A stretch of 64,000 bases of DNA from Syntrophomonadaceae bacterium (GTDB lineage: Bacteria; Bacillota; Dethiobacteria; DTU022), in assembly GCA_007132095.1 (NCBI GenBank), contig SLPH01000015.1:221-64220 (forward strand). Direction: 5' to 3'. The position numbers and the translations under genes were made by a program. A model generated the notes under the pieces. That model was not told the DNA's origin. It made no database searches and saw only the letters and a list, made by a program, of their open reading frames with translations. Every line of letters starts with the position of its first letter. The first letter of the stretch is position 1. Shown here one piece after another: positions 147 to 56,835 of the stretch.

Positions 147-1412
147 TTAATTGCCTGCGACGGCCTCAATTTCGAAAAGCAAACGGTCAATTTCTGCTTC
201 AGTATTGTAGGGAGACAGGCCAATTCTGATCAACCCGCCTTTATCGGCCAGCCCCAGCCGCTCAACTAAACGCAGGGCGTAAAAGTGGCCGTTCCAGGCA
301 AAAATACCTTTTTCGCCAAGTATTTCGGTAACCCTGTCGGGAGAAATTCCTTCCACGGTAAATGAGACGGTAGATGTGCGCGGCTGTCCGGCCGGGGGAG
401 CATATACCCTGACCCCTTTTATGGCTGCAAGATGTTTAAGCAGTTTATCGGCGAGCGGCTGTTCGTATTTCTCCAGCACTTGCATGCCGGCCAGTATTTT
501 CTCCCGCCTGTCGGGGCAGTTATGCCCGCCGGGATTGCTGACGCAGCTTATGGCCCCGAAGCGGTCTCCGATATCGGCGATGAATTCAACCGCCTCCGCA
601 GCTCCGGCGATGCCTTCGTGGTTAAGCGTGCCGGTCTCTATCCGGTGCGGTATCCCATCCAACTGAACCTGCAACCTGTAAGAGGGCAGGGCGGAGAATG
701 GCTCACGTTTTCCATAGAGCACCCCGATATGGGGGCCGAAGAACTTGTAAGCGGAACAGATCAGGTAATCTACGCCAATAGCTTTAACGTCGATCGGACC
801 ATGGAGGGCGTAGTGAACGGCATCAACGACACTAATTGCCCCAGCTTCTTTCGTTAAACGGGCCATCTCGCCAACATCGCTTATCGTTCCAACGGCGTTG
901 GAAGCGTAGTTGAAGGCGGCTACCAGGGTGTTTTCGCTTAACTTTGCCTTAAAATCTTCAAGGTCGAGAGTGCAGCTTTCCGGATCAAAACGCGCCTCCC
1001 GGATAATGAAACCTTTTTCCTCTAAGGCCTGCCAGGGTCCCCGGTTTGCCTCGTGATCGATTTCAGTTATTATAATTTCGTTGCGCCTGCCCGGGAAGCG
1101 GCCAAGCGCAAGGGCAAGCTGGTAGATCAGGGTGGTGGTGTTCTGGCCAAAGGCGATTTCATCCGCTTCTGAACCGAGAAAATCGGCCAGCGCACAGCGG
1201 GCTCCGGCTATAATTTGATCGCTTTCCTGGCTGGTCTTAAAATAACCGCCGGCATTGGCATTGCAATTCGACAGGTAGCTAACCATCGCTTCGATTACTC
1301 TCTCGGGCACCTGCGTGCCGCCCGGACCGTCAAAATATGCGGCCGGGTGGCCGTTCACGGTTACTTTAAGCGCCGGAAACTGATTCCTGATATATTCCAC
1401 GTCGTATTGCAT
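147..1412 (-). CDS. Class V aminotransferase-fold PLP enzyme (cysteine desulfurase / selenocysteine lyase-like)
   Basis: 421-aa ORF. The SAYKFFGPHIG region places the PLP-lysine in a class-V fold, and the N-terminal DGPGGTQVP and overall layout are typical of the family. I cannot confirm a SufS-type active-site Cys loop. Confidence 0.7.
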   Translation of the reverse strand: MQYDVEYIRNQFPALKVTVNGHPAAYFDGPGGTQVPERVIEAMVSYLSNCNANAGGYFKTSQESDQIIAGARCALADFLGSEADEIAFGQNTTTLIYQLALALGRFPGRRNEIIITEIDHEANRGPWQALEEKGFIIREARFDPESCTLDLEDFKAKLSENTLVAAFNYASNAVGTISDVGEMARLTKEAGAISVVDAVHYALHGPIDVKAIGVDYLICSAYKFFGPHIGVLYGKREPFSALPSYRLQVQLDGIPHRIETGTLNHEGIAGAAEAVEFIADIGDRFGAISCVSNPGGHNCPDRREKILAGMQVLEKYEQPLADKLLKHLAAIKGVRVYAPPAGQPRTSTVSFTVEGISPDRVTEILGEKGIFAWNGHFYALRLVERLGLADKGGLIRIGLSPYNTEAEIDRLLFEIEAVAGN

Positions 1413-1666
1413 GTGTCAAACCTACTTTCCAAAGGATGATTATTTTGCAGTCGGTTAGCTTTATCGATAAGGCTTTTACAATGTTTCCACATCCTGGTGC
1501 TAAATCCTTTATAGCCGCAATGATCTTGTTCCGGGCACTATAAAACCGGCATTATAGCAACTGACTCCTTATTGACTCCATAGTAGATATTTTTGTAAAA
1601 TATTGATTAAAGAGAGCAAATGCTGTAATATTAGGACAACTATTAGCGTTCCGGGGAGGTTATGAA

Positions 1667-2581
1667 GTGGAAGAGGTCAGGTTTGACGGAAAAGTTGCGG
1701 TGGTTACAGGTGCGGGAGGGGGGCTGGGCAAAGCATACGCTTTGCTTTTGGCAGCCCGGGGAGCAAAAGTGGTGGTTAACGACCTGGGAGGAAGTTTCGA
1801 TGGCGAGGGCAGCGATGCTACGCCGGCCCAGGCGGTAGTTGACCAGATCAAAGCTGAAGGCGGTGAAGCGCTGGCCAACTACGATAGCGTAGCAGAGTGG
1901 GAAAGCGCCAGGGGCATCATTCAGACAGCTTTTGACAGTTACGGCAGGATTGATATTTTAATTAACAACGCCGGTATCCTGCGCGATAAAAGCCTGCTGA
2001 AAATGGAGCTGGAAGATTACCACAAAATAATGCAGGTCCACCTTGATGGAACATTTTATTGCACAAAAGCGGCTTTTGCTTACATGAAAGAGCAGTCATA
2101 CGGCAGGATAGTATCAACTGCATCGGCAGCCGGCCTTTACGGCAATTTTGGCCAGGTTAATTACGGGGCGGCGAAAATGGGCATAGTGGGGATGATGAAC
2201 TGCGTTGCCCAGGAGGGCGCCCGATACAATATTAAGGCCAATACTATTGTGCCGACGGCGGGAACGCGGCTAACTTTCACGGTCATGCCCGAAGAGATGA
2301 TTGGCAGGGTCAAACCTGAATACGTCGCTCCCCTGGTAGCCTGGATCTGTTCCGAACAATGTAACGAGACGGCTACAATGTTTAGCGCCGGCGGCGGTTA
2401 TTACAGCCGTGCAGCTATCGTGGAAGGGCAGGGGGTTGTTTTTGACCCTTCCGGTGAGATTAGCATCGAAATGATTGCCGGAAAAATGGACCAGATCCTG
2501 AGCCTGGAAAGCGCGGTTGAATACGCTTCGGCCATGGAACAGGCCGGAACAGTGCTTTCCAAAACCAATTCTGGAAGCTGA
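1667..2581 (+). CDS. Short-chain dehydrogenase, MFE-2 / 17beta-HSD4-type (3R)-hydroxyacyl-CoA dehydrogenase
   Basis: GTG start. Rossmann motif VAVVTGAGGGLGKAYALLLAARGAKVVVNDLGG, then NNAGILRD and a YxxxK context. The N-terminal layout matches the dehydrogenase domain of D-bifunctional protein. Confidence 0.75.
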   Translation: MEEVRFDGKVAVVTGAGGGLGKAYALLLAARGAKVVVNDLGGSFDGEGSDATPAQAVVDQIKAEGGEALANYDSVAEWESARGIIQTAFDSYGRIDILINNAGILRDKSLLKMELEDYHKIMQVHLDGTFYCTKAAFAYMKEQSYGRIVSTASAAGLYGNFGQVNYGAAKMGIVGMMNCVAQEGARYNIKANTIVPTAGTRLTFTVMPEEMIGRVKPEYVAPLVAWICSEQCNETATMFSAGGGYYSRAAIVEGQGVVFDPSGEISIEMIAGKMDQILSLESAVEYASAMEQAGTVLSKTNSGS

Positions 2582-2592
2582 AAAGGGGTGAC

Positions 2593-3447
2593 ATGATGCC
2601 AATAGATCCGGGTTTAGTAGGCCGCGAACTGCCTTCACTGGAATACAGTTACAACAGCAAAGATGTTATCCTCTATGCCCTGGGTATTGGGGCCGGGTCG
2701 AAACCCGTTGATTTGACCTTTCTTTACGAAGGTGATTTAAAGGTATTGCCTACCTTCGGGGTTATCCCGCCTTTTCCCGCTTTAACCGGGATCATCGGGC
2801 TGGAAGGGATGGATTTTAACCCGGCCATGCTGTTGCACGGAGAGCAGTATCTCGAGCTGTTTGGCCCTATACCGGAGCAGGGAAAGGTTAAATCATACCC
2901 GCGTATTTCCGCCATCTACGACAAAGGCAAGGGAGCGCTGGTGGAAATTGAGGTGACAACAAGAGATAGCAAGGAAAAGCCGCTCTTTTTAAATCGCTTC
3001 AGCGTCTTTATCCGCGGAGAAGGCGGTTTCGGGGGCGAAAAGGGTCCGGAACCCGGTTTTGAACCGCCTGACAGGGCTGCAGACCGGGTGGCATCCATGC
3101 CAACCCTGCCTCAGCAGGCATTGCTCTACAGGCTGAGCGGTGACTTTAACCCATTGCATGCCGATCCCCAATTTGCCGCCATGGCGGGCTTTGATATGCC
3201 GATCCTGCATGGGCTATGCACTTTCGGTTTCGCCGGACGGGCAGTTTTAGATGAGTTTTGCAACGGCGATCCGGCCCTCTTCAAGGCGATAAAGGTCCGT
3301 TTTTCCCGCCATGTTTATCCCGGTGAAACTATTGTCACTGAAATGTGGCAGGACCAACCCGACCTGGTTATCCTGCGTTCGAAAACAGTAGAAAGGGGCG
3401 AATACTGTTTGACTAACGCCGCTGTCTGGCTTAAAAGCCAATTATAA
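2593..3447 (+). CDS. MaoC-like (R)-specific enoyl-CoA hydratase (hydratase-2 domain, double hot-dog)
   Basis: 284 aa, the length of a double hot-dog. The NPLHADPQFA motif is characteristic of hydratase-2. It sits 11 nt downstream of the SDR gene. Confidence 0.75.
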   Translation: MMPIDPGLVGRELPSLEYSYNSKDVILYALGIGAGSKPVDLTFLYEGDLKVLPTFGVIPPFPALTGIIGLEGMDFNPAMLLHGEQYLELFGPIPEQGKVKSYPRISAIYDKGKGALVEIEVTTRDSKEKPLFLNRFSVFIRGEGGFGGEKGPEPGFEPPDRAADRVASMPTLPQQALLYRLSGDFNPLHADPQFAAMAGFDMPILHGLCTFGFAGRAVLDEFCNGDPALFKAIKVRFSRHVYPGETIVTEMWQDQPDLVILRSKTVERGEYCLTNAAVWLKSQL

Positions 3448-3466
3448 ATCGGAGGGGTGATAGAAT

Positions 3467-4933
3467 TTGCTGGGAATTAAATCGTACGCGGGATATATAC
3501 CCCGCTATCGCTTGAACCGGATGACAATCTTTAGCTCCATGGGTTGGCTGAACCCGGCTATAATTATGAATGCGGCCGGTGAAAAATCCGTAGCCAATTA
3601 CGACGAAGATTCTGTAACCATGGCTGCTGCGGCCGGCCAGCGCTGCCTTGAAGGGATCGGGCCGGCGCAGGTTGGTGCGCTCTATTATGCTTCGACTACT
3701 TCTCCGTTCCGGGAACGTTCGGCTGCCAATATTGTATCGGCTGCGCTTGGCATTGAGGAAAATGTTCGAAGCGCCGATTTTGGCAGCTCAGCCAAGGCGG
3801 GGACAACCGCCCTCATAAGCGCGATCGAATTTTGCGCCGCTAACCCGGATTTGTCGGCGCTTGCCGCAGCCGCAGACTGCAGAATTGGTAAAGTCGGTTC
3901 TGTCCAGGAGATGGTCTTTGGCGATGCCGGAGCGGCTGTGATGGTAGGCAGTGATGACGTCATAGCCGAGTTTGACGGCTCCTATTCGGTTTCCTGCGAC
4001 TTTGTTGATCATCTGAGGGGATCAGAGAGCAGATATGATCGGCAGTGGGAGGAACGCTGGATCCGCGATCTTGGCTACGAGCGGATCATTCCCGAAGCAA
4101 TTCAGGCTTACCTGGACAAGTATGGCAGCAGGATTGAAGATTATACGAAGATTATCTACCCCTGTTACTACGGCGCGGCCAGAAAGAACATCAACCGCAA
4201 GCTTGGACTTAACCCGGCCCAGCTGCAGGATGACCTGATGATGGAATGCGGCGACAGCGGGTCTGCTCACCCCCTGTTGCTGCTGGCCGGCGCGCTTGAA
4301 AATGCATCTTCCGGCGATAAGCTGATGGTAATTGGGTTCGGTTATGGCTGTGATATCCTCGGTTTTACGGTTACAGAAGCTATAGATCATTATAAGGATA
4401 GACTGAGAGTTTCAGATTCTATTAAAAGAGAGGCCGAATTGGATAGCTTCACCAAGTACCTGGCCTGGCGCGACATGCTCCCCGTTGAGGTGGGCTTGCG
4501 CGGCGAGGAAGATAAAATAACCCGCTGGTCCATGGTCTGGCGCAACCGGGGCGCGATCCTGGGCTTAAAAGGGACTGTTTGCCTGGCCTGCGGAACCAGG
4601 CAGTACCCGCCGCAGCGTATTTGCGTAAACCCTGACTGCGGCGCCATTGACCAGATGGAACCATTCCGCTTTGCTGATCAGGGAGGTAAAGTTGTCAGTT
4701 TCACCTCTGACATGCTGGCCGCGACCATCAATCCTCCCGCTATTTACGGCAACATCGATTTTAACGGCGGAGGGCGCTGCATGATGGACTTTACCGATTG
4801 CGCCATGGAAGATCTGGAGGTTGGAAAAGCGGTAAAATTTACATTCAGGGTTAAGTATTATGACCGGCGGCGGGATACTACTTTCTACTTTTGGAAAGCG
4901 GTCCCGGCAGAGGAGGTGCCTGTAAATGGCTGA
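3467..4933 (+). CDS. HMG-CoA synthase / FabH-like condensing-enzyme fold fused to a C-terminal DUF35 zinc-ribbon + OB-fold domain
   Basis: TTG start after GGAGGGG. The N-terminal ~350 aa look thiolase/HMGCS-like. The C-terminus has a CLACGTRQYPPQRICVNPDCG zinc ribbon followed by a beta-rich OB-fold-like tail, which matches DUF35. The gene overlaps the next thiolase gene by 8 nt. Confidence 0.65.
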   Translation: MLGIKSYAGYIPRYRLNRMTIFSSMGWLNPAIIMNAAGEKSVANYDEDSVTMAAAAGQRCLEGIGPAQVGALYYASTTSPFRERSAANIVSAALGIEENVRSADFGSSAKAGTTALISAIEFCAANPDLSALAAAADCRIGKVGSVQEMVFGDAGAAVMVGSDDVIAEFDGSYSVSCDFVDHLRGSESRYDRQWEERWIRDLGYERIIPEAIQAYLDKYGSRIEDYTKIIYPCYYGAARKNINRKLGLNPAQLQDDLMMECGDSGSAHPLLLLAGALENASSGDKLMVIGFGYGCDILGFTVTEAIDHYKDRLRVSDSIKREAELDSFTKYLAWRDMLPVEVGLRGEEDKITRWSMVWRNRGAILGLKGTVCLACGTRQYPPQRICVNPDCGAIDQMEPFRFADQGGKVVSFTSDMLAATINPPAIYGNIDFNGGGRCMMDFTDCAMEDLEVGKAVKFTFRVKYYDRRRDTTFYFWKAVPAEEVPVNG

Positions 4934-6131
4934 TGGAATCAGGGATAAAGTGGCAATCCTTGGTATGGGTTGTTCCAGGTTTGGCGAGCGCTGGGAGGAC
5001 GATTCTTCCGATCTGATTATCGAAGCCTTCAGGGAATGCCTTGAAGATGCCGGAATTGAGAAAAACGAGGTTCAGGCGGCCTGGATCGGCAATCATATCG
5101 ATCAGGTTAATATTGGCAAAGGCGGGTGCTACCTGGGCAGCACGCTTCATCTTCCCTTTATTCCTATCACCAGGGTGGAAAATTTCTGCGCTTCAGGGAC
5201 AGAAGCTTTTCGCGGAGCTTGCTATGCCGTAGCTTCCGGAGCCTATGACATTGTTCTGGCCGCCGGCGTGGAAAAGCTGAAGGATGTGGGCTATGGCGGC
5301 CTGCCCGATGATCCAATTTTTGGCCAGCTCTACAGGCTGCTTGGTCCCAATGCGACCGCTCCGGGTCTTTTTGCCCAGCTGGCTACCGCTTATTCGGCCC
5401 GTTACGGTGTCCCGATGGAAAAGATTAAGCAGGCTCTTACGCATATTTCCTGGAAAAGCCACCAGAACGGGGCTATGAATCCGCGTGCCCACCTGCGAAA
5501 GGAAATCAGCGAAACCCAGATTGCCGATTCTCCTTTTGTCGCTTATCCCCTGGGCCTTTTTGACTGCTGCGGAGTCAGCGACGGGGCGGCCATGGCCATT
5601 GTAACAACCCCGGAAATTGCATCCCGGCTGAAACCGGGTCAGGACCAGGTTCGGGTCAAAGCTCTGCAGATTGCCGTTAGCTCCGGCGAAGAGCTGATCT
5701 ATAACCGCTGGGACGGAAGTAGTTTTATGACCACGCAGCATGCTGCCAGGAGGGCATATGCAGAAGCGGGGATCAGTAACCCCCGCGAAGAAATTGGCAT
5801 GATGGAAGTGCATGATTGCTTCTCAATTACGGAAATGGTTACCATGGAAGACCTGCAGGTATCGCCTCCCGGCCAGGCTCCGGATGACATTCTGGGCGGG
5901 TTCTTTGATCTTGACGGCCAGATACCGTGCCAGCCTGACGGCGGCCTTAAATGTTTTGGTCATCCCATCGGCGCTTCGGGCCTGCGCATGATCTTCGAGG
6001 TCTATAACCAGCTGCTCAGGCGCTGGCCGGAGGAAAGGCTGGTAAAAGAACCTAAGCTTGGCTTAACCCACAACCTGGGCGGGGTCCCTTCGCAAAATGT
6101 ATGCAGTATCGGAATCTTTGGTTTAAACTAA
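4926..6131 (+). CDS. SCP-x type (nonspecific lipid-transfer protein-like) thiolase
   Basis: N-terminus VAILGMGCSRFGERW is typical of SCPx/DitF-type thiolases, and a [11 protein letters not shown] motif lies near the C-terminus. 401 aa. Confidence 0.75.
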   Translation: MADGIRDKVAILGMGCSRFGERWEDDSSDLIIEAFRECLEDAGIEKNEVQAAWIGNHIDQVNIGKGGCYLGSTLHLPFIPITRVENFCASGTEAFRGACYAVASGAYDIVLAAGVEKLKDVGYGGLPDDPIFGQLYRLLGPNATAPGLFAQLATAYSARYGVPMEKIKQALTHISWKSHQNGAMNPRAHLRKEISETQIADSPFVAYPLGLFDCCGVSDGAAMAIVTTPEIASRLKPGQDQVRVKALQIAVSSGEELIYNRWDGSSFMTTQHAARRAYAEAGISNPREEIGMMEVHDCFSITEMVTMEDLQVSPPGQAPDDILGGFFDLDGQIPCQPDGGLKCFGHPIGASGLRMIFEVYNQLLRRWPEERLVKEPKLGLTHNLGGVPSQNVCSIGIFGLN

Positions 6132-6158
6132 ACCGGGCGGAAAGAGAATATGATCCAT

Positions 6159-6200
6159 GCGGGCCGGGAGAACGGTTACCCGGCCCGCTATATTTGTGAT
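6159..6200 (+). terminator. Rho-independent terminator after the thiolase gene
   Basis: Perfect 10-bp stem gcgggccggg / cccggcccgc with a 10-nt loop, then a T-rich tail (tatatttgtgat). Confidence 0.5.
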
Positions 6201-6383
6201 CTAAATTTCTTTTCTTATATCTTCCGGAGGAAAATGCGCCCTGTTAAGCGAATAATGTTTAATCAACCAAAGAAGATACTTCAGGCCTTGCAGTCATCAT
6301 AGATACCCCAATTTACGGGAAACCAGGTTTAATCGCCTGGTAAACCCCGCATTATGGGTAGTTATGTTTAAGGAGGGGAAATA

Positions 6384-7403
6384 GTGGGGAACACTTATCA
6401 ACCGGTGGAGCGTGCCGTATCTTATCAACCCGCCGGAGAAGGCAAAATATTTACCGATCCCGACGCAGATAAGGCCAGGGAATATTTTTATCACGAAAAG
6501 CCCCGTAAAATGGTGTCCAAAGAGACATCGGTAAAAGAAGCGGTATCAGCGCTGGTGAAAGATGGCGATTATATCGGGGTGGGCGGTTTTGGGGCAAACC
6601 GGATCCCCACAGCAATACTGCATGAAATTGTGCGTCAAAACAAAAAAAACCTGGGCCTGGCCGGACATACGGCAACCCATGACTTTCAGATCCTGGTAGC
6701 AGGCAACTGCATCAATCGTTGTGACATTGCCTATATCGTCGGGTTGGAAGCACGCGGGTTGTCGAAAATGGCCCGCCGGGCTGTCGAAAGCGGAGCGATA
6801 GAGATAACGGAGTGGACTAATGCCGCTCTCGCCTGGAGGTATAAGGCAGCTTCCATGGGGGTCTCCTTTTTGCCGGTCCGCTGCATGCTGGGAACGGACA
6901 CGGCTAAATACAGCGCTGCCGTGAAGATGGAGTGCCCTTTCACCGGATCGGTTTATCTTGCTGTTCCCGCCCTTTACCCTGATCTAGCCATAATTCATGT
7001 CCACCGGGCTGACGTTTACGGCAACTGCCAGATTGACGGGATTATGGTTTCCGATTACGATTTAGCCAGAGCTGCCAAGCGCCTGATTGTGACCACGGAG
7101 CGCTTTGTGCCAAACGAAGTTATCAGGAGAGAACCGGCCCGCACTGCTATTCCCTACTATCTTGTCGATGCCGTAATAGAGGTGCCTTTTGGAAGCTATC
7201 CGGGCAACATGGCTTATGAATACTACAGCGACGAAGAACACCTGCGCCAGTGGCTCGATGCAGACGGCGACGATGAAAAATTGAAGGATTTCCTGGAAAA
7301 GCATCTGTATGGGGTTCCTGATTTTGAAGCCTACCTGCAGACAGTGGGCGGTTTGAAAAAACTGCAAAAATTGCGCTCTCTAGAAAACCTGGTCGAGAAA
7401 TAA
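6384..7403 (+). CDS. gctA: CoA-transferase subunit A (glutaconate / 3-oxoacid CoA-transferase family I)
   Basis: GTG start 7 nt after AAGGAGGGG. GVGGFGANRIPTAILHEIVRQ is typical of GctA/AtoD-like alpha subunits. A B subunit follows. Confidence 0.7.
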   Translation: MGNTYQPVERAVSYQPAGEGKIFTDPDADKAREYFYHEKPRKMVSKETSVKEAVSALVKDGDYIGVGGFGANRIPTAILHEIVRQNKKNLGLAGHTATHDFQILVAGNCINRCDIAYIVGLEARGLSKMARRAVESGAIEITEWTNAALAWRYKAASMGVSFLPVRCMLGTDTAKYSAAVKMECPFTGSVYLAVPALYPDLAIIHVHRADVYGNCQIDGIMVSDYDLARAAKRLIVTTERFVPNEVIRREPARTAIPYYLVDAVIEVPFGSYPGNMAYEYYSDEEHLRQWLDADGDDEKLKDFLEKHLYGVPDFEAYLQTVGGLKKLQKLRSLENLVEK

Positions 7404-7469
7404 AAGAGCCGGATCAGCATTCTCCCGGCATATTTATTTGTCTGGCCTGATAGGAATGGGGTTTATATT

Positions 7470-8252
7470 GTGAGCAGCTACAACAAAATGGAGCTGATGA
7501 TCTGTCTCGCTTCCCGCTACCTTGAAGACGACAGCATCGTTGTGGTCGGAACAGGTGCTCCCTGCGCGGCGGCGATGCTGGCCCAAAAAATGTATTCTCC
7601 CCGGCTGATGATTATGTTCGAGGCGGGAGGTATAGGGCCGCTGCTGCCTTCAATGCCCATATCGGTTGGCGACTCGCGCACTTTCTACCGCGGTCTGGGC
7701 GCCAGCAGCATGCCCGAAATTATGGAAACCTGCCAGCGCGGCCTGGTCGACTACACTTTTTTAGGCGGGGCGCAGATCGATATGTATGGTAATATTAATT
7801 CGACTATGGTCGGAACTGATCACGCCCGCCCAAAAGTTCGCTTTCCAGGCAGCGGAGGGGCAAATGATCTGGCCTCCTTCTGCTGGAAAACGATGATGAT
7901 CACGCCGCAGGATAAGCGGCGTTTCACCGAAAAAATCGATTTTGTCACATCGCCGGGCTACCTTGACGGGCCCGGCGCCCGGGAAGCGGCAGGATTGCCG
8001 CCTGGCACCGGGCCGTATAAAGTTATAACCGACCTTTGCGTGATCGGATTTGATGGCGAGAGCAAGAGAATGAAGGTGGAAAATATTCACCCCGGGCTTG
8101 ATCGGGAAGTTATTGCTGAAAACACGGGGTTCGAACTGCTGTGGTCTGAAAACCTGGTTCAGAGTGAGCCCCCTACAGCTGCAGAACTGCAGTGCCTGAG
8201 GGAGGAAGTAGATCCATACCGCTATATTATCGGCCGCAGCGGTCCCGGTTAA
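7470..8252 (+). CDS. gctB: CoA-transferase subunit B
   Basis: 260 aa. The Gly-rich [12 protein letters not shown] segment is typical of the beta subunit. It sits directly after subunit A. Confidence 0.7.
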
Positions 8253-8295
8253 ACTTATACACCTGTATGCAACCTTAAAAAATGGAGGGATGTTG

Positions 8296-9477
8296 ATGAT
8301 AAAAGAAGCAGTAATCCTCAGCGCTGTCCGGACTGCCGTTGGCACCTATGGCGGGTCTTTAAAAGAGGTGAACGCGGCTGAACTGGGAGCCTTGACTATT
8401 AAAGAATCCCTGCAGCGGGCCGATATTGATCCGGCGATGGTTGATGAAGTGATGATGGGCTGTGTCCTGCAGGGAGGGGTAGGGCAGAACATAGCCAGGC
8501 AGGCGGCCTTAAAAGCGGGTTTGCCGGTGGAGGTCCCCTGCACTACGGTGAACAAGGTTTGCGGCTCCGGGTTAAAATGCATCACTGCCGCAGCTACCGA
8601 AATTATGGCCGGTGAAGCTGACCTGATTGTTGCCGGCGGGATGGAAAATATGAGCGCTTCACCTTACCTGCTTCAAAAAGCGCGCTGGGGGATGCGCATG
8701 GGCGATACCCCTGTTGTCGATATGATGATCAAAGATGGTCTCTGGTGTGCTTTCAACAACTATCACATGGGTATTACAGCAGAGAACCTGGCCGACCAGT
8801 TTGGTATTGGCAGGGAAGAACAGGATCTTTTTGCTTTCGAAAGCCAGGAAAAAGCGCGCAGGGCAATTGAAACCGGGCGTTTTGAAGACGAAATAGTCCC
8901 GGTAGAGATACCGCAGCGTAAAGGAGATCCACTTTATTTTAAAGTTGATGAACACCCTCGTTCAACGACGATGGAATCCCTGGGAGGGCTAAAACCTGCT
9001 TTTAAAAAAGATGGAACTGTTACTGCGGGAAACGCTTCCGGAATAAACGATAGCGCGGCTGCCCTGGTGGTAGCGAGCGCGGAAAAAGCAGAAGAGCTGG
9101 GTTTAAAACCCCTCTGCACCATCCGCAGCTTTGCCTCAGCCGGTGTTGATCCTTCCATCATGGGAACGGGCCCGATCCCTGCATCGCGCAAGGCGCTGAA
9201 AAAAGCGGGATGGTCTATTGGAGATCTTGATCTGGTTGAAGCGAACGAAGCTTTTGCTGTCCAGGCCCTGACTGTCATGAAAGAGCTGGGTCTTGATCCG
9301 GAAAAAACGAATGTAAACGGGGGAGCAATAGCGCTGGGGCACCCGATAGGGGCCAGTGGGGCCCGCATATTTGTCTCCCTGGTGCACGAAATGATCAAGC
9401 GCGGGGCCGGTAAAGGCCTGGCCACGCTTTGTATCGGCGGGGGGATGGGTATAGCCTGCGCCGTGGAAAGGGCATAG
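8296..9477 (+). CDS. Acetyl-CoA C-acetyltransferase (thiolase II)
   Basis: Canonical thiolase motifs: VCGSGLK with the active-site Cys, [18 protein letters not shown], and [10 protein letters not shown] chose the ATG 6 nt after GGAGGG rather than the SD-adjacent ATG at 8290. Confidence 0.85.
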
Positions 9478-9498
9478 TAAAGAAGGAGGTTGCATGCA

Positions 9499-10431
9499 AT
9501 GGCCGTTAACATGAAGGGCAAAGATATAATTTCCATTCATGATCTCAGCCGGGAAGAAGTAGATCAGATCCTTGGTACCGCTGGAATCCTGAAAATGAAG
9601 CAAAAACTGGGCGAGATATATCATCCTTTAAAGGGGAAAAGCCTCGGTATGATTTTCCAGAAATCGTCAACCCGGACCAGGGTTTCCTTTGAGGTGGGGA
9701 TGTGGCAGCTGGGCGGCTATGCGTTATTTCTCAGCGCCGCCGATTTGCAGCTAAAACGCGGCGAAACTATAGCAGACACGGCCAGGAACCTGAGTCGCTA
9801 TCTGGACGGGATCATGATTCGCACTTACGACCATGAAGATGTGGTCCAGATGGCCAAATACAGCTCGGTTCCGGTAATTAACGGTCTGACTGATCTGCTC
9901 CACCCGTGCCAGGTACTGGCCGACCTTTTTACGATCCTGGAAAAGAAAAGAAAGCTGGAAGGCTTGAAACTGGCCTATATCGGCGATGGCAACAATATGG
10001 CTCATTCGCTTATGTTCGGAGGGGCTAAGGTGGGGATGCATGTGGTGATCTGCGCCCCTTCGGGATTCGAACCTGACCCTGAAATCACCAGGCTTTCCAG
10101 GCTTGATGCTGCCAGGACAGGTTCAACAATCACGATCCAGGATGATCCCAGGGCTGCCGTTGAAACTGCAGACATTATTTATACCGATGTCTGGACCAGC
10201 ATGGGTATGGAAGAGGAATACGAACAGCGTCTGAAAAGCTTTTCACGCTACCAGGTCAATAGCGAACTATTAGAAAAAGCGAAAGAAGATGCCCTCGTTA
10301 TGCACTGCCTGCCTGCTCACCGGGGCGAAGAGATTACCGACGAAGTGATAGAAGGCCATCGCTCCATCGTATTTGACCAGGCTGAAAACCGCCTGCACGT
10401 TCAGAAAGCAATAATGGCGCTGATCATGTAA
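9499..10431 (+). CDS. argF: Ornithine carbamoyltransferase
   Basis: All four OTCase motifs are present: STRTR, HPCQ, DVWTSMG and HCLPAHRGEE. I chose the ATG 9 nt after GGAGG. The stop lies 15 nt before the giant downstream gene. Confidence 0.8.
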   Translation: MAVNMKGKDIISIHDLSREEVDQILGTAGILKMKQKLGEIYHPLKGKSLGMIFQKSSTRTRVSFEVGMWQLGGYALFLSAADLQLKRGETIADTARNLSRYLDGIMIRTYDHEDVVQMAKYSSVPVINGLTDLLHPCQVLADLFTILEKKRKLEGLKLAYIGDGNNMAHSLMFGGAKVGMHVVICAPSGFEPDPEITRLSRLDAARTGSTITIQDDPRAAVETADIIYTDVWTSMGMEEEYEQRLKSFSRYQVNSELLEKAKEDALVMHCLPAHRGEEITDEVIEGHRSIVFDQAENRLHVQKAIMALIM

Positions 10432-10446
10432 TAGTGGGAGGTTTTT

Positions 10447-13400
10447 ATGGGAACTGTAGAACAGGACAGATCGGATCTACCTGCAATAGGGCTTGACATA
10501 GGTGTATTTTCATCAAAGGGAGTACTGATAAAAGACGGGAGAATTGATTATATAACCGTTCCTACAGCCGGGCGCCCGGCTGAGGCTGCCTGGGGCTGTT
10601 TAAGCGCCCTGCTCGGTAAAGAGCTTAGCGGCAAAGCCCGTATTGGTATAATGGGCCAGAACGGAAAACTTGTTGCCGGCATTATCGGGCTGCAGCCGGT
10701 CCTCGAAATAGAAGCATTGCAGACCGGGCTGGAAAGCCTGCAAATCGGGGCTGAGTATGTAATATCGCTTGGCCATGAGAATATGCATTACCTTGAGCTG
10801 GATGAAAAGGGACGGATTAAATTTTTTAACCGTAATGGCCAGTGCGCCGCCGGTAGCGGATCGTTTTGGTACCAGCAGGCGACCCGCATGGGCTATAATG
10901 ATCGCCAGCTCGCTGAAATTGCGGCCGAAGCGGAAACGGCAGTTCCTATTTCCGGGCGCTGCGCTGTTTTCGCCAAGTCGGACATGACTCACGCAATCAA
11001 CGAAGGCGCCACCCAAAGCGCTGTCTCAGCCGGTATGGCTGCCGCCCTGGTGGAAACGGTAATTACCGGGGTGGCTTTAAACAGGATGCAGGGGCCGGCC
11101 ACGCTTGCCCTCAGCGGCGGCGTGGCAAATAATAAAGCGGTGACCAAGTATCTCAGGGCCTTTGCCGAAAAAAATGGGATTAAAGTAATTATTCCAGACA
11201 AACATGAATATATAAACGCTGTTGGAGCCGCATTAAAGGGGACGCCGATTGATTTAGGCACCCTGAACGAGAACGTGCTGAAAACCCCAAAGTTTAAAAC
11301 CGACCAGCCCCTGCCTCCGCTGGATCCGGGGCTGGTCCACTACCTGGAAAATGATCAGGCAAGCCCTGAATTTGATTTAAGCCGGGTTTACCTTGGAGTT
11401 GACTGCGGATCGGTCTCAACCAAGTGCGTTTTGCTCGATCAGCAGGGCGAAAAAATTGGAGGGATTTACCTTCCCACAACCGGCCGTCCCGCCCTGCAGG
11501 TTTTGCAGCTAATTCGTCACGTTGCCGATCGCTATGGGAAAATGCTCGAAGGTTCGCCTATTACGGTCTGCACTACCGGTTCAGGCCGCTTTCTGTCCCA
11601 AAAGATTCTGAACGCCGAGTATGCTGTTGATGAAATAACCTGCCAGGCCGAAGGATTGAAATACCTCTTTCCTGATGAACAGGCCCTGGCAATTATTGAA
11701 ATCGGCGGAGAAGATTCAAAGTTTGTCCAACTTAAGGAAGGTATTTTATACGACTACAACATGAACCCGGTTTGCGCGGCCGGAACGGGAACGTTTTTGG
11801 AAAACCTGGCCGAACTGCTTGGCGTCAAGATCGACGGCGAGTTCTCCCAGAAGGCCTTTCAGGCAGAGTATGCGGTAGACCTCGGCGATATCTGCACACT
11901 TATATCCCAATCGATCCTGGCTTCCGCATCAGCCAGGGGCCTGCCGCTGAACGAACAGCTGGCCAGCCTTGCTTATTCATCGGCCCAAAACTATCTCAGT
12001 AAAACAGTTGATAAGCGGCCCCTGGAAGGAAAGATTGTTTTTGCCGGGGCTACGGCAAAAAACAGCGCCCTTGCTGCAGCTTTGGCTACGATCTGCGAAA
12101 ATGAGATCACCGTGTCTGCCGAACCGGAACTGACAGGAGCGCTGGGTTGTGCCCTGATGGCCAGGCAGCTATACCGGAAAGGGAAAAAAGGATTATACTC
12201 ATTCCGCAACCTTTCTGATATAAGGAAGTTTACCACCGATAAGCGGCCCTGCAAGGCCGATTGCATTCATGAACATAACTGTATTCTTAACATAATAACT
12301 TTTGCTGACGGAAACAGATTCATTTACGGCGATCGCTGCGGACGTTTTTCGGGCCTGGAAAGACGCAGCGACCATTACGAGCTGCCGGATTACTGCGCTG
12401 AACGCAATGGACTCCTGGCCGGATATGAAAATGAAAAGAAAGAGACGGGTCCGCTGGTCTGCATGGCCCGCAGCGGTCTCTACTATGAATACTTTCCTTT
12501 CTGGTCGGCTTTTTTCAACAAGCTGGGCTGCAGGGTCTCCCTTTCAAAGTATTCTACCGCCGAAACCCTGGAAAAAGGCAAGGTCAGCCTTGATTCAGAG
12601 ATGTGTTACCCTATGAAGGTTATAGTCGGCCATTATGCAGAGCTGCTTGAGGGCGACTGCGATTATATTTTTATACCCGAAGTTGTGGATATGGAAGCCC
12701 TGCCCTGGACCGATCTTTGGCCTCGCTCCTTTGTCTGTCCGCTGCTGCAAACCCTGCGCGGAACAGTGGTCAACTCCCTGGATATTGATGAAAATAGAAT
12801 TCTCTATGCCCAGTTAAATTACCGGGCCGGCCCCAGGGTGATCCGGGATCAGCTTAAGCCCCTTGCATTCGAAATACTTGGTCCCGATTACAGCGAAGCC
12901 AGATTTGAACAGGCCCTGGATAGCGCTTACAGCGCCTTAAATGAATTCCGCGGCGAGCTTGTCGTAGCCGCTGAAAGAGCCCTGGAAAGCCTGGCCGGCA
13001 ATACCGATAACGGAGCTGTTGTCTTCCTGGGGAGAAGCTATACGCTTTACGACGACTACATAGCCAAGAAATCGATGCACTATGCCAGGGAAAGCGGGCT
13101 CTTTTCGCTGCCCCACGAATATCTCTTTTACTATATGTCGGCCTGGATGAAAGGGGAAATTAAATCGGCCTTTCTTGATCGCTACAGGCAGGAATTTAAA
13201 GATTACCTTGAACGGCATATCGAGATCATGGAAAATATCTACCCGGCCCAGCTGCAAAGAATGCTTTCTGTGGTCCTGCTGGTTAACTTTCTTAACCTGA
13301 AAAACGGCGAAACCGGTTTACCCCGCCTCAACCTGATCTTTCTCGATCCGTTCAAATGCGGGCCTAATGCCATGATGCGCCACTACTTAAGCGGCCTTTG

Positions 13401-14790
13401 CAGCTACCTCCGCTTAACGATAGACGAGCATACTGCCGCCGCCGGGATGATAACCCGGCTTGAGGCTTTCAAAAATACCTGTCTCTCTAACACCAGCGTC
13501 AGGCAGATAGAGATGCATTCATCGAAAACATGCTCGGTTACCGATGAAAACTGGAACAAGATCCTGATCCCTGAGCCGACCAGGCACGCTGCTATATTTG
13601 CTGCGCTGTTCAGGAGCGCCGGCGTTGAGGCGGAGGTTATTCCCCGCAGCAAAACCGGCGACCTTTCTTTAGCCCGAAAATATGTAAACGGCGAGGAATG
13701 TCTTCCATTCCTGCAAAACCTGCAGGATTTCCTGGCGTACCTGAAAAGCGAGGTTGTAAGCGAAGAGAGCAGGCCGGTTTTCTTCCAGGGATGGGCCTGC
13801 GGCCCCTGTCGGTACGGTCTATATGCACCCACCCAGGCTTTGGCCATTAACAGGGCGGGATTTGGCGAGATGAGGGTCTGTGCGATTAAGTTTAGCGACG
13901 TTGCAAAGAGGTTTGGATATGGGTTTGTCCTCGGCTTTTACAGCGCGGTTTTAACGATGGATATTCTCTATAAACTGCTGCATCGCGTCCGGCCTTATGA
14001 AACGAAAAAAGGCGAAGCAGACCAGGTTTTTGAGCGATATACCAACAGGCTTATCGAAGAGGCGGAAAAATTCCGCTTCCGGTTAGCGGCTTTCCCGGGA
14101 GGCCGCTACAGGAAACCTTTTGAGACGCTTATTGGTGAAGCGGCAGAAGAATTCGCCAGGATCGAGCGAAAAAGCGGAGTCAAGCCGAGGATTCTCTTAA
14201 ACGGCGAATTCTACGTGCGCCTCGACGATCGTTGTAACCAATCTGTGATCGATAAAATTGAGGCAGCGGGAGGAGAAGTCTCACTGGCCCCTGCGACCGA
14301 GTTATTCGCCTACACTATACACATTGATTACCTTGAAGCCATCCATTCGTTCAGGATCAACCGCAGGCCGGGCGATTATTTCAAGCGCATTTTCTATAAG
14401 CAGCTGATCAAGGTTGCCCATCGCGATGAAGCCGCTTTACACAAAGCTGCAGGACCTTTGCTGAGGGGACTTGAAGAACCTTCACCCGAAGAGATCATGC
14501 AGAGAGCGCAAAAATATGTATCGCCCCACTATGGCGGTGAACCGCCGATGACCATAGGCAGGGCAGCTGCTTTTGCCAGGAGGGGGAAGGCTGCAGGAGC
14601 AATTTTTGTCGCCCCCTTTACCTGCATGCCGGCCTCTGTCGTTGAAGCCCAGCAGGGAAGCCTCCAGGAGGAGCTCGGTATACCTATGGTAACAGTTTAT
14701 TACGATGGTAAAGAGAACAGCAACCGTGACGAGCTGGTCGAAGGGCTGGTTTTCCAGGCCCGTCAGCGTATCGGGGCCGGAAAAGCTTAA
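10447..14790 (+). CDS. Giant fusion of two BadF/BadG/BcrA/BcrD-type (HgdC-like) acyl-CoA dehydratase activase ATPase domains with a long C-terminal region I think matches DUF2229 (distantly HgdA/B-like)
   Basis: 1447 aa. The N-terminal ~600 aa hold two actin-fold ATPase repeats (IGLDIGVFSSKG..., VYLGVDCGSVSTKC...). The remaining ~850 aa carry Cys motifs CPLLQTLRG, FKCGPNAMMRHY, GWACGPCRYG and FTCMPASVV. The name DUF2229 is from memory and unverified. Confidence 0.7.
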   Translation: MGTVEQDRSDLPAIGLDIGVFSSKGVLIKDGRIDYITVPTAGRPAEAAWGCLSALLGKELSGKARIGIMGQNGKLVAGIIGLQPVLEIEALQTGLESLQIGAEYVISLGHENMHYLELDEKGRIKFFNRNGQCAAGSGSFWYQQATRMGYNDRQLAEIAAEAETAVPISGRCAVFAKSDMTHAINEGATQSAVSAGMAAALVETVITGVALNRMQGPATLALSGGVANNKAVTKYLRAFAEKNGIKVIIPDKHEYINAVGAALKGTPIDLGTLNENVLKTPKFKTDQPLPPLDPGLVHYLENDQASPEFDLSRVYLGVDCGSVSTKCVLLDQQGEKIGGIYLPTTGRPALQVLQLIRHVADRYGKMLEGSPITVCTTGSGRFLSQKILNAEYAVDEITCQAEGLKYLFPDEQALAIIEIGGEDSKFVQLKEGILYDYNMNPVCAAGTGTFLENLAELLGVKIDGEFSQKAFQAEYAVDLGDICTLISQSILASASARGLPLNEQLASLAYSSAQNYLSKTVDKRPLEGKIVFAGATAKNSALAAALATICENEITVSAEPELTGALGCALMARQLYRKGKKGLYSFRNLSDIRKFTTDKRPCKADCIHEHNCILNIITFADGNRFIYGDRCGRFSGLERRSDHYELPDYCAERNGLLAGYENEKKETGPLVCMARSGLYYEYFPFWSAFFNKLGCRVSLSKYSTAETLEKGKVSLDSEMCYPMKVIVGHYAELLEGDCDYIFIPEVVDMEALPWTDLWPRSFVCPLLQTLRGTVVNSLDIDENRILYAQLNYRAGPRVIRDQLKPLAFEILGPDYSEARFEQALDSAYSALNEFRGELVVAAERALESLAGNTDNGAVVFLGRSYTLYDDYIAKKSMHYARESGLFSLPHEYLFYYMSAWMKGEIKSAFLDRYRQEFKDYLERHIEIMENIYPAQLQRMLSVVLLVNFLNLKNGETGLPRLNLIFLDPFKCGPNAMMRHYLSGLCSYLRLTIDEHTAAAGMITRLEAFKNTCLSNTSVRQIEMHSSKTCSVTDENWNKILIPEPTRHAAIFAALFRSAGVEAEVIPRSKTGDLSLARKYVNGEECLPFLQNLQDFLAYLKSEVVSEESRPVFFQGWACGPCRYGLYAPTQALAINRAGFGEMRVCAIKFSDVAKRFGYGFVLGFYSAVLTMDILYKLLHRVRPYETKKGEADQVFERYTNRLIEEAEKFRFRLAAFPGGRYRKPFETLIGEAAEEFARIERKSGVKPRILLNGEFYVRLDDRCNQSVIDKIEAAGGEVSLAPATELFAYTIHIDYLEAIHSFRINRRPGDYFKRIFYKQLIKVAHRDEAALHKAAGPLLRGLEEPSPEEIMQRAQKYVSPHYGGEPPMTIGRAAAFARRGKAAGAIFVAPFTCMPASVVEAQQGSLQEELGIPMVTVYYDGKENSNRDELVEGLVFQARQRIGAGKA

Positions 14791-22179: not shown

Positions 22180-22255
22180 TGGTGAGCCATCTAGGATTCG
22201 AACCTAGGACACCCTGATTAAAAGTCAGGTGCTCTACCAACTGAGCTAATGGCCC
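22180..22255 (-). tRNA. tRNA-Lys (anticodon TTT)
   Basis: The reverse complement folds as a cloverleaf: GGGCCAT acceptor, CTTTTAA anticodon loop, GGTTCGAATCC T-arm, encoded CCA. Confidence 0.9.
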
Positions 22256-22256
22256 A

Positions 22257-22345
22257 TGGTGGTGGAGAGGACTGGATTCGAACCAGTGAAGGCGCTGCCA
22301 GCAGATTTACAGTCTGCCCCCTTTGGCCAACTTGGGTACCTCTCC
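22257..22345 (-). tRNA. tRNA-Tyr (anticodon GTA)
   Basis: Reverse complement: GGAGAGG acceptor, CTGTAAA anticodon loop, long variable arm, GGTTCGAATCC T-arm, CCA. Confidence 0.85.
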
Positions 22346-22356
22346 ATGTCTATCTG

Positions 22357-22431
22357 TGGAGCCGACGAAGGGACTCGAACCCCCAACCTGCTGATTACAA
22401 ATCAGCTGCTCTTCCGTTGAGCTACGTCGGC
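22357..22431 (-). tRNA. tRNA-Thr (anticodon TGT)
   Basis: Reverse complement: GCCGACG acceptor, TTTGTAA anticodon loop, GGTTCGAGTCC T-arm, CCA. Confidence 0.9.
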
Positions 22432-28103: not shown

Positions 28104-28179
28104 AGGGGAGTAGCTCAACTGGCAGAGCAGCGGTCTCCAAAACCGCAGGCTGCGGGTTCAAGTCCTGTCTCCCCTGCCA
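28104..28179 (+). tRNA. tRNA-Trp (anticodon CCA)
   Basis: AGGGGAG acceptor, CTCCAAA anticodon loop, GGTTCAAGTCC T-arm, encoded CCA. Confidence 0.9.
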
Positions 28180-47607: not shown

Positions 47608-47880
47608 AAAAAAAACGCCTCCAAGAGACGAAAATTATGCTTTCCGTGATACCACTCTTCTTGGCAGCATGACGTCTACCGCCCACTCTTTATGATAACG
47701 GAAGTCTCCGGCCAGCCCTACTTGCGAAGTGGAAAGGTGTTGCCTTTCCTGCTTTCAGGTGGCGGCTCCCGGAGGAGTTCGCCGGCTTTTTCATACCGTT
47801 TTGCACCTGCCAACGGTTCTCTGAAAATGAATGGGCCGATTACTGGTTCCGGTCATCGCCTTTTCAATATTAAACTGATA
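47608..47880 (-). promoter_or_regulatory. Candidate T-box leader (leucine-specific) upstream of leuA
   Basis: Read on the minus strand. A stem-loop ggcg-AACUCCUCCGGGAG-ccgcc exposes a CUC leucine codon. A T-box-like AGAGUGGUAUCACGG sits immediately 5' of a terminator hairpin CGUCUC-UUG-GAGGCG followed by U8. The leader is about 315 nt. Confidence 0.45.
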
Positions 47881-56759: not shown

Positions 56760-56835
56760 TGGCTGCGGGACTAGGGATCGAACCTAGGCTTGGTGATCCA
56801 GAGTCACCCGTGCTACCGCTACACCATCCCGCAGC
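56760..56835 (-). tRNA. tRNA-Gln (anticodon CTG)
   Basis: The reverse complement folds as a cloverleaf with a CTCTGGA anticodon loop, GGTTCGATCC T-arm and CCA. It lies downstream of gltX on the same strand. Confidence 0.9.

Follow-up and report, generated by a model that had tools for sequence, protein, structure and literature searches.

A fused HMG-CoA synthase-like pseudo-enzyme with a DUF35 module, probably the non-catalytic partner of an SCP2-type thiolase in a bacterial beta-oxidation gene module

In the PhlACB complex, the subunit PhlA looks like a 3-hydroxy-3-methylglutaryl-CoA (HMG-CoA) synthase (HMGCS) that has lost the catalytic Cys (Gly115 in its place) and Glu (Cys83 in its place) of the synthase. 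Catalysis is carried out by residues of PhlC only, notably Cys88, and the DUF35 protein PhlB ties the PhlA and PhlC dimers together, its N-terminal tail being buried between the two (Pavkov-Keller et al., PMC6392133). Liao et al. (Nat Commun 2026, PMC12960953) have since mined 1,030 bacterial HMGS/ACAT/DUF35 loci, 1,001 of them without biosynthetic neighbours, and studied a complex from P. fluorescens in which a fused HMGS-DUF35 protein lacks the Glu-Cys-His-Asn tetrad and the ACAT retains Cys, HDxF and GHx. This complex made neither HMG-CoA nor acetoacetyl-CoA; it cleaved acetoacetyl-CoA in a CoA-dependent reaction, and the ACAT mutation H294Y, which hits the HDxF histidine, nearly abolished activity. 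The same paper reports that mutating the whole tetrad of an archaeal HMGCS ends HMG-CoA formation, and its authors proposed an "evolutionary intermediate not yet recruited into a pathway". Here we describe a relative of these proteins, encoded in a 64,000-nucleotide stretch of contig SLPH01000015.1 (positions 221 to 64,220, forward strand) of a Syntrophomonadaceae bacterium (GCA_007132095.1). We call this whole stretch the window and number it from its first letter. The gene in question, at 3467-4933, encodes a fused pseudo-HMGCS-DUF35 protein that has lost the entire tetrad, and it is probably the non-catalytic partner of the SCP2-type thiolase encoded next to it.

The window locus and the P. 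fluorescens complex (PfACAT/HMGS-DUF35) share the HMGS-DUF35 fusion, the lost tetrad, an adjacent thiolase with Cys, HDxF and GHx, and the absence of polyketide synthase or non-ribosomal peptide synthetase (PKS/NRPS) neighbours. They differ in that the window protein comes from an uncultured anaerobic member of the Bacillota, and in that its pair lies within a conserved MFE-2-like dehydrogenase/hydratase module. At the level of sequence, the window pair has every feature of the class of Liao et al., a kind already established by PhlA (2018) and the P. fluorescens complex (2026). Full-text searches for this fused protein in anaerobes brought up no publications other than those cited here.

The central observation is that the Glu-Cys-His-Asn tetrad of HMGCS has become Thr78, Ala109, Pro232 and Asp263 in the fused protein, a mapping given alike by pairwise alignments, a family multiple sequence alignment and a profile alignment. 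Compared with the HMGCS subunit of M. thermolithotrophicus (6esq_I), these residues stand in for Glu82, Cys114, His238 and Asn270, and the archaeal motifs GS-E-SHPY, EFA-C-KAGT, VF-H-QPNG and LG-N-TYS read AS-T-TSPF, GSS-A-KAGT, IY-P-CYYG and CG-D-SGS. The peptide DFGSSAKAGTTAL (residues 103-115) spans the former nucleophile site; its Ala109 aligns to Cys114 of 6esq_I, to Cys111 of S. aureus HMGCS (1tvz) and to Gly115 of PhlA, and an 18-member family profile set against 1tvz (Glu79, Cys111, His233) leaves the mapping unchanged (E 1e-15). A first-pass annotation, made by a model from the letters of the DNA, had already noticed that the catalytic Cys appeared to be missing, and all three kinds of alignment bear this out. 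The motif by which it had looked for the nucleophile, G-x-C-x-G, was wrong; in HMGCS the motif is (E/D)xxxAC(K/Y)(A/G)xT. The His and Asn positions, which it had left to be located, fall by alignment on Pro232 and Asp263.

To see how far this loss extends, we compared two sets of homologs. The close set holds the 120 nearest database proteins (57-99% identity), all of them fused and about 485-490 residues long. The distant set holds 130 full-length fused representatives (31-55% identity) out of the 527 clusters that a HMMER search of 1.84 billion cluster representatives returned at E<=1e-30. Glu, Cys and His are found at their respective tetrad columns in none of the 120 close homologs and in none of the 130 distant ones, so that the loss is neither chance nor sequencing error; no Cys occupies the nucleophile site in any of the 250. 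The close homologs match the window protein at a mean identity of 61% in the HMGCS-like domain, 65% in the linker and 69% in the DUF35 part.

Could the protein nonetheless be a functional HMG-CoA synthase that we have mis-aligned, or the decaying pseudogene of one? The homology to HMGCS is genuine, and JGI/IMG names many of the homologs "hydroxymethylglutaryl-CoA synthase". Yet three sequence alignments put non-catalytic residues at all four tetrad sites, and the predicted fold matches the same PDB proteins. The protein also scores under both NCBIfam HMGCS cutoffs: NF003274, the archaeal-type model, aligns residues 2-338 at 202.3 bits (cutoff 244), and TIGR00748 gives 137.6 bits (cutoff 353). 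As for decay, the open reading frame (ORF) is unbroken in every locus examined and is conserved over several phyla and more than 500 clusters, and gene decay is therefore excluded. We give a working or decaying synthase practically no chance, in agreement with the first-pass annotation, which had doubted a working synthase. Judged from these sequences, the fused protein is a maintained pseudo-enzyme.

A dead active site might be replaced by another one nearby, and every Cys of the HMGCS-like domain was inspected for a relocated nucleophile. Cys138, in AADCRIG, was the residue named in advance as a possible nucleophile that would overturn the pseudo-enzyme idea. It lies opposite the Thr of GADT in HMGCS and PhlA and is variable, being kept in 94/120 close and 37/130 distant homologs. 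Cys233 sits beside the former His site and Cys295 in the oxyanion loop, and the close homologs mostly retain both (112/120 and 116/120). Among the distant representatives, by contrast, Cys stands there in 12/130 and 39/130, and Ala, Ser, Gly or Val takes its place in most of the wider superfamily, which makes a relocated nucleophile unlikely; we rejected all three candidates as essential nucleophiles. A broader version of the idea is that the domain has been neo-functionalised, with Cys233, Cys295 or Asp263 catalysing a different CoA-thioester reaction, or with the old pocket serving as a ligand-sensing or substrate-holding site. The high conservation of the domain, its many invariant polar residues and the two cysteines flanking the former active site would fit such a role, and Ibero et al. 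(PMC7793797) speculated on another activity for a homolog in an oestrogen-degradation cluster. However, 4-8 of the 120 close homologs also do without these cysteines, and the nucleophile column of the family is mostly filled by a bulky Leu or Val. Furthermore, mutating the thiolase alone nearly removed the activity of the P. fluorescens complex (PMC12960953), and in PhlACB the substrate is contacted by PhlC residues only (PMC6392133). We consider a new catalytic or binding function of this kind very unlikely.

What the gene does encode is an archaeal-type HMGCS fold joined to a zinc-ribbon/OB-fold DUF35 by a conserved linker. In the N-terminal part Pfam finds only a weak FabH-C match; at residues 367-461 it recognises zf-ChsH2 (4e-6) and OB_ChsH2_C (9e-5), that is, DUF35. 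The four ribbon cysteines (C372, C375, C386 and C391; nt 4580-4639) are all kept in 120/120 close homologs, and this part aligns to 6esq_E, the archaeal DUF35 chain, at E 5e-6, or 7e-13 with a profile. In the linker G343, R345, G346, E347, T352, R353, W354, W358 and R359 are invariant, and its TRWSxVWRNR motif aligns weakly (E 0.0098) to residues 15-24 of the PhlB N-terminal tail. For the protein as a whole the top PDB match is PhlA (5m3k_A; E 7e-39, 2e-52 with a profile), and the other relatives are 9skh (a Chromobacterium homolog), 6esq_I (the Methanothermococcus HMGCS subunit; 4e-29) and 9vbo_A (MucA). An AlphaFold model, built from an 18-sequence alignment and with a mean pLDDT of 64, is adequate for assigning the fold, not for analysing the pocket. 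Its best Foldseek matches are again PhlA (5mg5_A), 9skh, 6esq_I and MucA, and target-normalised TM scores of 0.74-0.78 to PhlA and 6esq_I indicate that the HMGCS/thiolase-superfamily fold is present. The fused DUF35 module and the 8-nt overlap with the SCPx thiolase gene, both described in the first-pass annotation, are confirmed by the Pfam and PDB matches and by the position of the thiolase ATG (4926), which the stop of the fused gene overlaps.

The active site missing from the fused protein is complete in this neighbour. The thiolase carries Cys88 in VENFCASG (nt 5187-5189), HDCF at residues 296-299 (nt 5811-5822), with His296 in it, and GHP at 345-347, where His346 is encoded at nt 5961-5963. 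Its top PDB match is 6esq_A (2e-54), the thiolase of the archaeal thiolase/HMGCS/DUF35 complex; it matches PhlC in the C-terminal part only (1e-21) and Ltp2 at 2e-13, and it falls below the cutoff of the BbsB model NF053628 (132 bits, cutoff 750). To follow the pair through genomes, we assembled 80 loci that encode proteins related to the fused one. Their sources are metagenome-assembled genomes (MAGs) of Syntrophomonadaceae and other Bacillota, together with Actinomycetota (Geothermincolia/Solincola), Nitrospinota and Desulfobacterota, the last including a cultured strain, Desulfatibacillum alkenivorans DSM 16219; the nearest named relatives are Syntrophomonadaceae MAGs. The thiolase gene lies directly 3' of the fused gene in 79/80 of them, and in the remaining one the contig ends there. 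Cys88, HDCF and His346 are conserved in 77/77 partner genes where the positions are covered, and across loci the thiolase (63-86% identity) is more conserved than the scaffold (53-70%). A protein identical to the window thiolase is encoded on contig PWST01000115.1 of GCA_003563115.1. In the partner thiolases of Variovorax and Azoarcus HDxF falls at residue 294, as in the H294Y numbering of the P. fluorescens ACAT.

These features invite comparison with the acyltransferases PhlACB (PpATase; 5M3K/5MG5) and MucABC (SmaATase; 9VBO), which likewise combine a dead HMGCS, a DUF35 and an SCP2-type thiolase whose Cys is the only one acting. Like the fused protein, PhlA has no nucleophilic Cys, no Glu and an Asp at the tetrad Asn site. 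A Friedel-Crafts C-acyltransferase of this type, acetylating a small-molecule acceptor in secondary metabolism, would thus be a conceivable function, all the more as PhlA is the top match in both PDB and Foldseek searches. But PhlC and MucB, which acetylate small molecules, have lost HDxF, and the window thiolase retains it as HDCF; it is also much nearer to the archaeal thiolase (2e-54) than to PhlC (1e-21). PhlA and PhlB are separate proteins, and here the two modules are one polypeptide. Finally, PhlACB and MucABC belong to biosynthetic clusters, whereas Pfam scans of positions 147-14790 found no PKS/NRPS genes flanking the window pair, its neighbours being an aminotransferase, beta-oxidation genes, an ornithine carbamoyltransferase (OTCase) and an activase-like protein. 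On HDCF retention and catabolic context we rejected the Friedel-Crafts function, for which we see only a slim chance.

The archaeal complex of M. thermolithotrophicus (6ESQ) shares its thiolase, HMGCS and DUF35 modules with the window pair (2e-54, 4e-29 and 5e-6), as well as the thiolase motifs Cys, HDCF and GHx. There, however, the modules are separate proteins and the HMGCS is active (Glu82, Cys114, His238, Asn270), serving the mevalonate pathway by drawing an endergonic condensation on to HMG-CoA. With the HMGCS active site gone from the fused protein, channelling to a second reaction is impossible, unlike in 6ESQ. The first-pass annotation had compared the pair to ChsH2-DUF35 with Ltp2 and to BbsAB. 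This holds for the shared DUF35 module with an SCP2-type thiolase-fold enzyme; as comparators, though, both are more distant than PhlACB, MucABC, PfACAT/HMGS-DUF35 and 6ESQ. Neither has an HMGCS-like module, and BbsA is a stand-alone DUF35, in contrast to the fused one of the window; BbsB keeps HDxF and is a true thiolase, and Ltp2 is a retro-aldolase.

To explain these results we propose that the fused protein is a pseudo-enzyme acting as the non-catalytic partner of the adjacent SCP2-type thiolase in an (R)-specific beta-oxidation module, a reading to which we assign a probability of roughly 0.75. The fused protein would assemble with the downstream, translationally coupled thiolase much as in the 6ESQ and PhlACB complexes. 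The sole active site would be that of the thiolase, made up of Cys88, His296 of HDCF and His346. The thiolase would depend on the dead HMGCS-like dimer and the DUF35 clamp for its architecture and, probably, for part of the CoA-binding chamber. The complex would then perform the C-C cleaving, thiolytic step of a peroxisome-like, (R)-specific beta-oxidation module, in which the genes for the MFE-2-type hydratase and dehydrogenase lie just 5' of the pair and those for a CoA-transferase and thiolase II lie 3' of it. The domain architecture, the tetrad loss throughout the family, the intact thiolase motifs and the conserved synteny are plain to see in the genes. By analogy with the described complexes, the window protein most likely forms a complex with its thiolase. 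That this complex would make no HMG-CoA and would thiolyse acetoacetyl-CoA is carried over from the homologs in the literature, and its physiological direction, its substrate and any contact with the short-chain dehydrogenase/reductase (SDR) or the hydratase are what we infer. A non-catalytic scaffold for the thiolase was also what the first-pass annotation had suggested, and it is now supported by the tetrad loss, the thiolase motifs, the invariant and translationally coupled pair, the matches to PhlA, 6esq_I and MucA, and the P. fluorescens complex.

The beta-oxidation part of the proposal comes from the genes around the pair (Table 1). The MFE-2-like genes adjoin it, relatives lie near acyl-CoA dehydrogenases (ACADs), CoA-transferases and oestrogen-degradation genes, and some relatives are fused to SDR and SCP2 domains; for these reasons we favour a degradative role. 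In the window, the four core genes are tightly packed: the SDR is followed after 11 nt by the hydratase, which is followed after 19 nt by the scaffold gene, and this in turn overlaps the thiolase gene by 8 nt. The SDR matches 2et6 (1e-137) and the dehydrogenase domain of human HSD17B4 (1zbq, 2e-91), and the hydratase matches human MFE-2 hydratase 2 (1s9c, 2e-74).

Table 1. Features of the pseudo-HMGCS-DUF35 locus (window positions; the last row gives positions in other loci)
Feature	Position	Strand	Details
Promoter-like site TTGACT-18-TAAAAT	1572..1601	+	Upstream of the module's first gene; consensus scan 10/12, consensus match only
SDR, peroxisomal-MFE-2-type (3R)-hydroxyacyl-CoA dehydrogenase	1667..2581	+	304 aa; Pfam adh_short 4e-44
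MFE-2 hydratase-2 / MaoC (R)-specific enoyl-CoA hydratase	2593..3447	+	284 aa; Pfam MFE-2_hydrat-2_N 4e-41, MaoC 2e-29
Shine-Dalgarno GGAGG	3451..3455	+	11 nt 5' of the TTG start of the fused gene; read from sequence
Fused pseudo-HMGCS-DUF35 gene	3467..4933	+	488 aa; TTG start
HMGCS-like thiolase-fold domain, tetrad lost	3467..4426	+	aa 1-320; NCBIfam, PDB, Foldseek matches
Thr78 codon, site of the HMGCS general-base Glu	3698..3700	+	Thr in 118/120 close homologs
Ala109 codon, site of the nucleophile Cys	3791..3793	+	Family: Leu, Val, Ile, Thr, Ala, Met or Gly
Pro232 codon, site of the catalytic His	4160..4162	+	Pro in 120/120 close homologs
Asp263 codon, site of the tetrad Asn (Asn270)	4253..4255	+	Asp in 119/120 close homologs; PhlA also Asp
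Conserved linker, motif G-x-RGEE...TRWSxVWRNR	4427..4561	+	aa 321-365
DUF35 module, Cys4 zinc ribbon then OB fold	4562..4912	+	aa 366-482; Pfam, PDB 6esq_E
SCP2-type thiolase, presumed catalytic partner	4926..6131	+	401 aa; PRK06157 634 bits (NCBIfam)
Two-subunit CoA-transferase, glutaconate CoA-transferase family	6384..8252	+	339 + 260 aa; Pfam CoA_trans; 1poi_A 5e-33
Classical acetyl-CoA C-acetyltransferase (thiolase II)	8290..9477	+	395 aa; TIGR01930 492 bits, PRK05656 596 bits
Upstream ORF found in other loci (about 108 aa), examples	L086:7553-7879; L043:2096-2416; L049:9571-9888	+ (L086)	Total 38/80 loci

Relatives carry much the same company. The block of SDR, MaoC, scaffold and thiolase genes recurs in 27/30 Bacillota-type loci, 9/30 of which have a CoA-transferase 3' of the pair. 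D. alkenivorans shows the order sigma-54 regulator, two ACADs, SDR, scaffold, thiolase and a two-subunit MaoC hydratase, and in Variovorax paradoxus (38% identity) SDR, MaoC and the pair are followed by an ACAD, a CoA-transferase and a carboxylate-binding transporter protein. Natural fusions join the same parts, as scaffold-SDR-SCP2 (911 aa), as scaffold-SDR (800 aa) or as scaffold-SCP2-SCP2 (722 aa); the fused family members include P0129, P0151 and P0128. On the JGI metagenome contig Ga0186781_1225644 (L091:3836-8736) the 911-aa pseudo-HMGCS-DUF35-SDR-SCP2 fusion stands beside a 709-aa hydratase2-SDR-SCP2 gene, which has the domain content of MFE-2 in a different order; an SCP2-type thiolase follows the fusion, and an ACAD and a TetR regulator precede the two multidomain genes. 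P0233 (723 aa), which joins an HMGCS-like N-terminal part to ATP-grasp and molybdopterin-binding domains and lacks DUF35, looks like a chimeric gene call, though it may be another type of fusion; we did not use it as evidence. A further context is oestrogen degradation: plasmid p3 of Novosphingobium sp. ES2-1 carries an edc-type cluster in which a fused homolog of 467 residues (32% identity; T/L/S/F at the tetrad sites) precedes a thiolase that has Cys87, HDCF and GHP, the pair lying between SDR/ACAD and enoyl-CoA hydratase (ECH) genes. In the edc cluster of N. tardaugens, an "HMG-CoA synthase" of unassigned function (EGO55_13555) likewise sits beside a thiolase (EGO55_13550; Ibero et al. 2020, PMC7793797). 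This oestrogen-cluster homolog is distant and belongs to an aerobic steroid-ring pathway, whereas the window has no steroid-degradation genes. Taken together with Table 1, the embedding of the pair in an MFE-2-like module argues for a settled catabolic role, not for the "evolutionary intermediate" of Liao et al.

An additional gene is found in part of the family. Directly upstream of the pair, 34/35 Actinomycetota-type loci and four others (at least three of them Desulfobacterota-type) encode an ORF of about 108 residues with no Pfam match, whose copies share 35-84% identity. The window lacks this ORF, whose product may represent an additional subunit or an accessory protein of certain clades.

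Several points weigh against our proposal. The Actinomycetota pair comes without SDR and MaoC genes; equivalence to the P. fluorescens complex rests on shared architecture, motifs and residue numbering; and the AlphaFold model of the fused protein is, at its pLDDT, only moderately confident. Conservation of Cys233 and Cys295 in the close family could hint at a residual or new function, and the pseudo-HMGCS domain retains many invariant charged residues. In addition, no ACAD gene is present in the module of the window, and (R)-stereochemistry is also typical of biosynthetic routes, so that the reaction might run in either direction.

These last two points also speak for a reading in which the module runs the other way. 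The thiolase would then perform a non-decarboxylative Claisen condensation, pulled by the (R)-specific reductase and dehydratase, in a CoA-dependent and ACP-independent elongation or reverse beta-oxidation. The model for this would be the ketothiolase/DUF35/ketoacyl-CoA reductase/MaoC complex of Sulfolobus acidocaldarius, whose four activities are those of the window module and whose DUF35-thiolase core binds both the SDR and the MaoC enzyme (bioRxiv 10.1101/2024.07.05.601840). The window core indeed has the gene content of this archaeal complex (SDR, MaoC, a DUF35-containing protein and a thiolase), and the host lineage is related to syntrophs, whose beta-oxidation runs near equilibrium. The Sulfolobus complex, which works biosynthetically, differs in having no HMGCS-like module. 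Moreover, the sole characterised fused complex cleaved acetoacetyl-CoA and did not condense acetyl-CoA (PMC12960953), no enoyl-CoA reductase gene was seen beside the pair, and relatives adjoin ACADs, catabolic regulators, transporters and an oestrogen-degradation cluster. In view of the catabolic neighbours of the relatives and of the failure of the P. fluorescens complex to condense acetyl-CoA, we regard the biosynthetic direction as unlikely.

Our preferred reading, the thiolase partner in degradative beta-oxidation, can be carried a step further. Given the role of DUF35 for thiolase, SDR and MaoC in the Sulfolobus fatty acid synthase complex, the fused protein might be the hub of a bacterial MFE-2/SCPx counterpart, docking the dehydrogenase and hydratase 2 on the thiolase and channelling the last three steps of beta-oxidation. 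We put this forward tentatively, as an analogy that may well not hold. If true, it would explain why selection maintains a dead enzyme at full size in more than 500 clusters, with loci in Bacillota, Actinomycetota, Desulfobacterota and Pseudomonadota, why SDR and SCP2 fusions occur, and why the four genes are found as a set in anaerobic Bacillota and in the aerobic Variovorax alike.

Some further observations concern the surroundings of the module. Between the thiolase and CoA-transferase genes lie 252 nt (6132-6383) in which a T-containing tail comes after a GC-rich hairpin, GGGCCGGG...CCCGGCCC; this element may work as an attenuator or partial terminator, setting the four-gene core apart from the genes 3' of it. 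In some ENA contigs a 50-aa ORF has been called in the equivalent gap. Downstream, 12 nt past the thiolase II gene, begins an OTCase gene (9490-10431, +), an adjacency also seen in loci L007, L012, L015 and L035, which makes for an odd but conserved link between arginine metabolism and acyl-CoA genes. Another 15 nt past the OTCase gene, 10447-14790 (+) encodes a 1447-aa protein with two BcrAD/BadFG-type ATPase domains and DUF2229 ("CoA enzyme activase"), resembling activators of 2-hydroxyacyl-CoA dehydratase or benzoyl-CoA-reductase-type enzymes; it lies a few kb 3' of the glutaconate-CoA-transferase-like genes and on the same strand. Elsewhere in the window are a full-length T-box leader (47621-47865, -; 120.7 bits) upstream of a 513-aa ORF (46020-47561, -), a cluster of three tRNA genes (22183-22431, -) and single tRNA genes at 28104-28176 (+) and 56763-56833 (-). 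The T-box is consistent with a member of the Bacillota as the source.

The loss of the tetrad also matters for how these genes are named. JGI/IMG attaches "(3-)hydroxy(-3-)methylglutaryl-CoA synthase" to tetrad-less fused homologs such as P0003, P0014, P0016, P0021, P0138, P0275-P0277 and others, and NCBI uses the neutral "OB-fold domain-containing protein" or "HMG-CoA synthase family protein". Proteins of this kind cannot make HMG-CoA by the canonical mechanism. The synthase label is thus a systematic over-annotation that could mislead pathway reconstructions, and in MAGs of Syntrophomonadaceae, Geothermincolia/Solincola and Desulfobacterota it could be misread as a mevalonate pathway or as ketogenesis.

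In principle none of this is a surprise, since PhlA and the P. fluorescens complex came first, and the window protein adds a clear case of a whole enzyme domain retained as a structural subunit. What is new here is the synteny, that is, the MFE-2-like dehydrogenase and hydratase genes, the acyl-CoA dehydrogenases, the CoA-transferases and the SCP2 fusions. It suggests why oestrogen-degradation clusters carry a puzzling "HMG-CoA synthase" gene, and it provides a plausible home, in the beta-oxidation of CoA-activated acids, for the approximately 1,000 "orphan" HMGS-ACAT-DUF35 loci of Liao et al.

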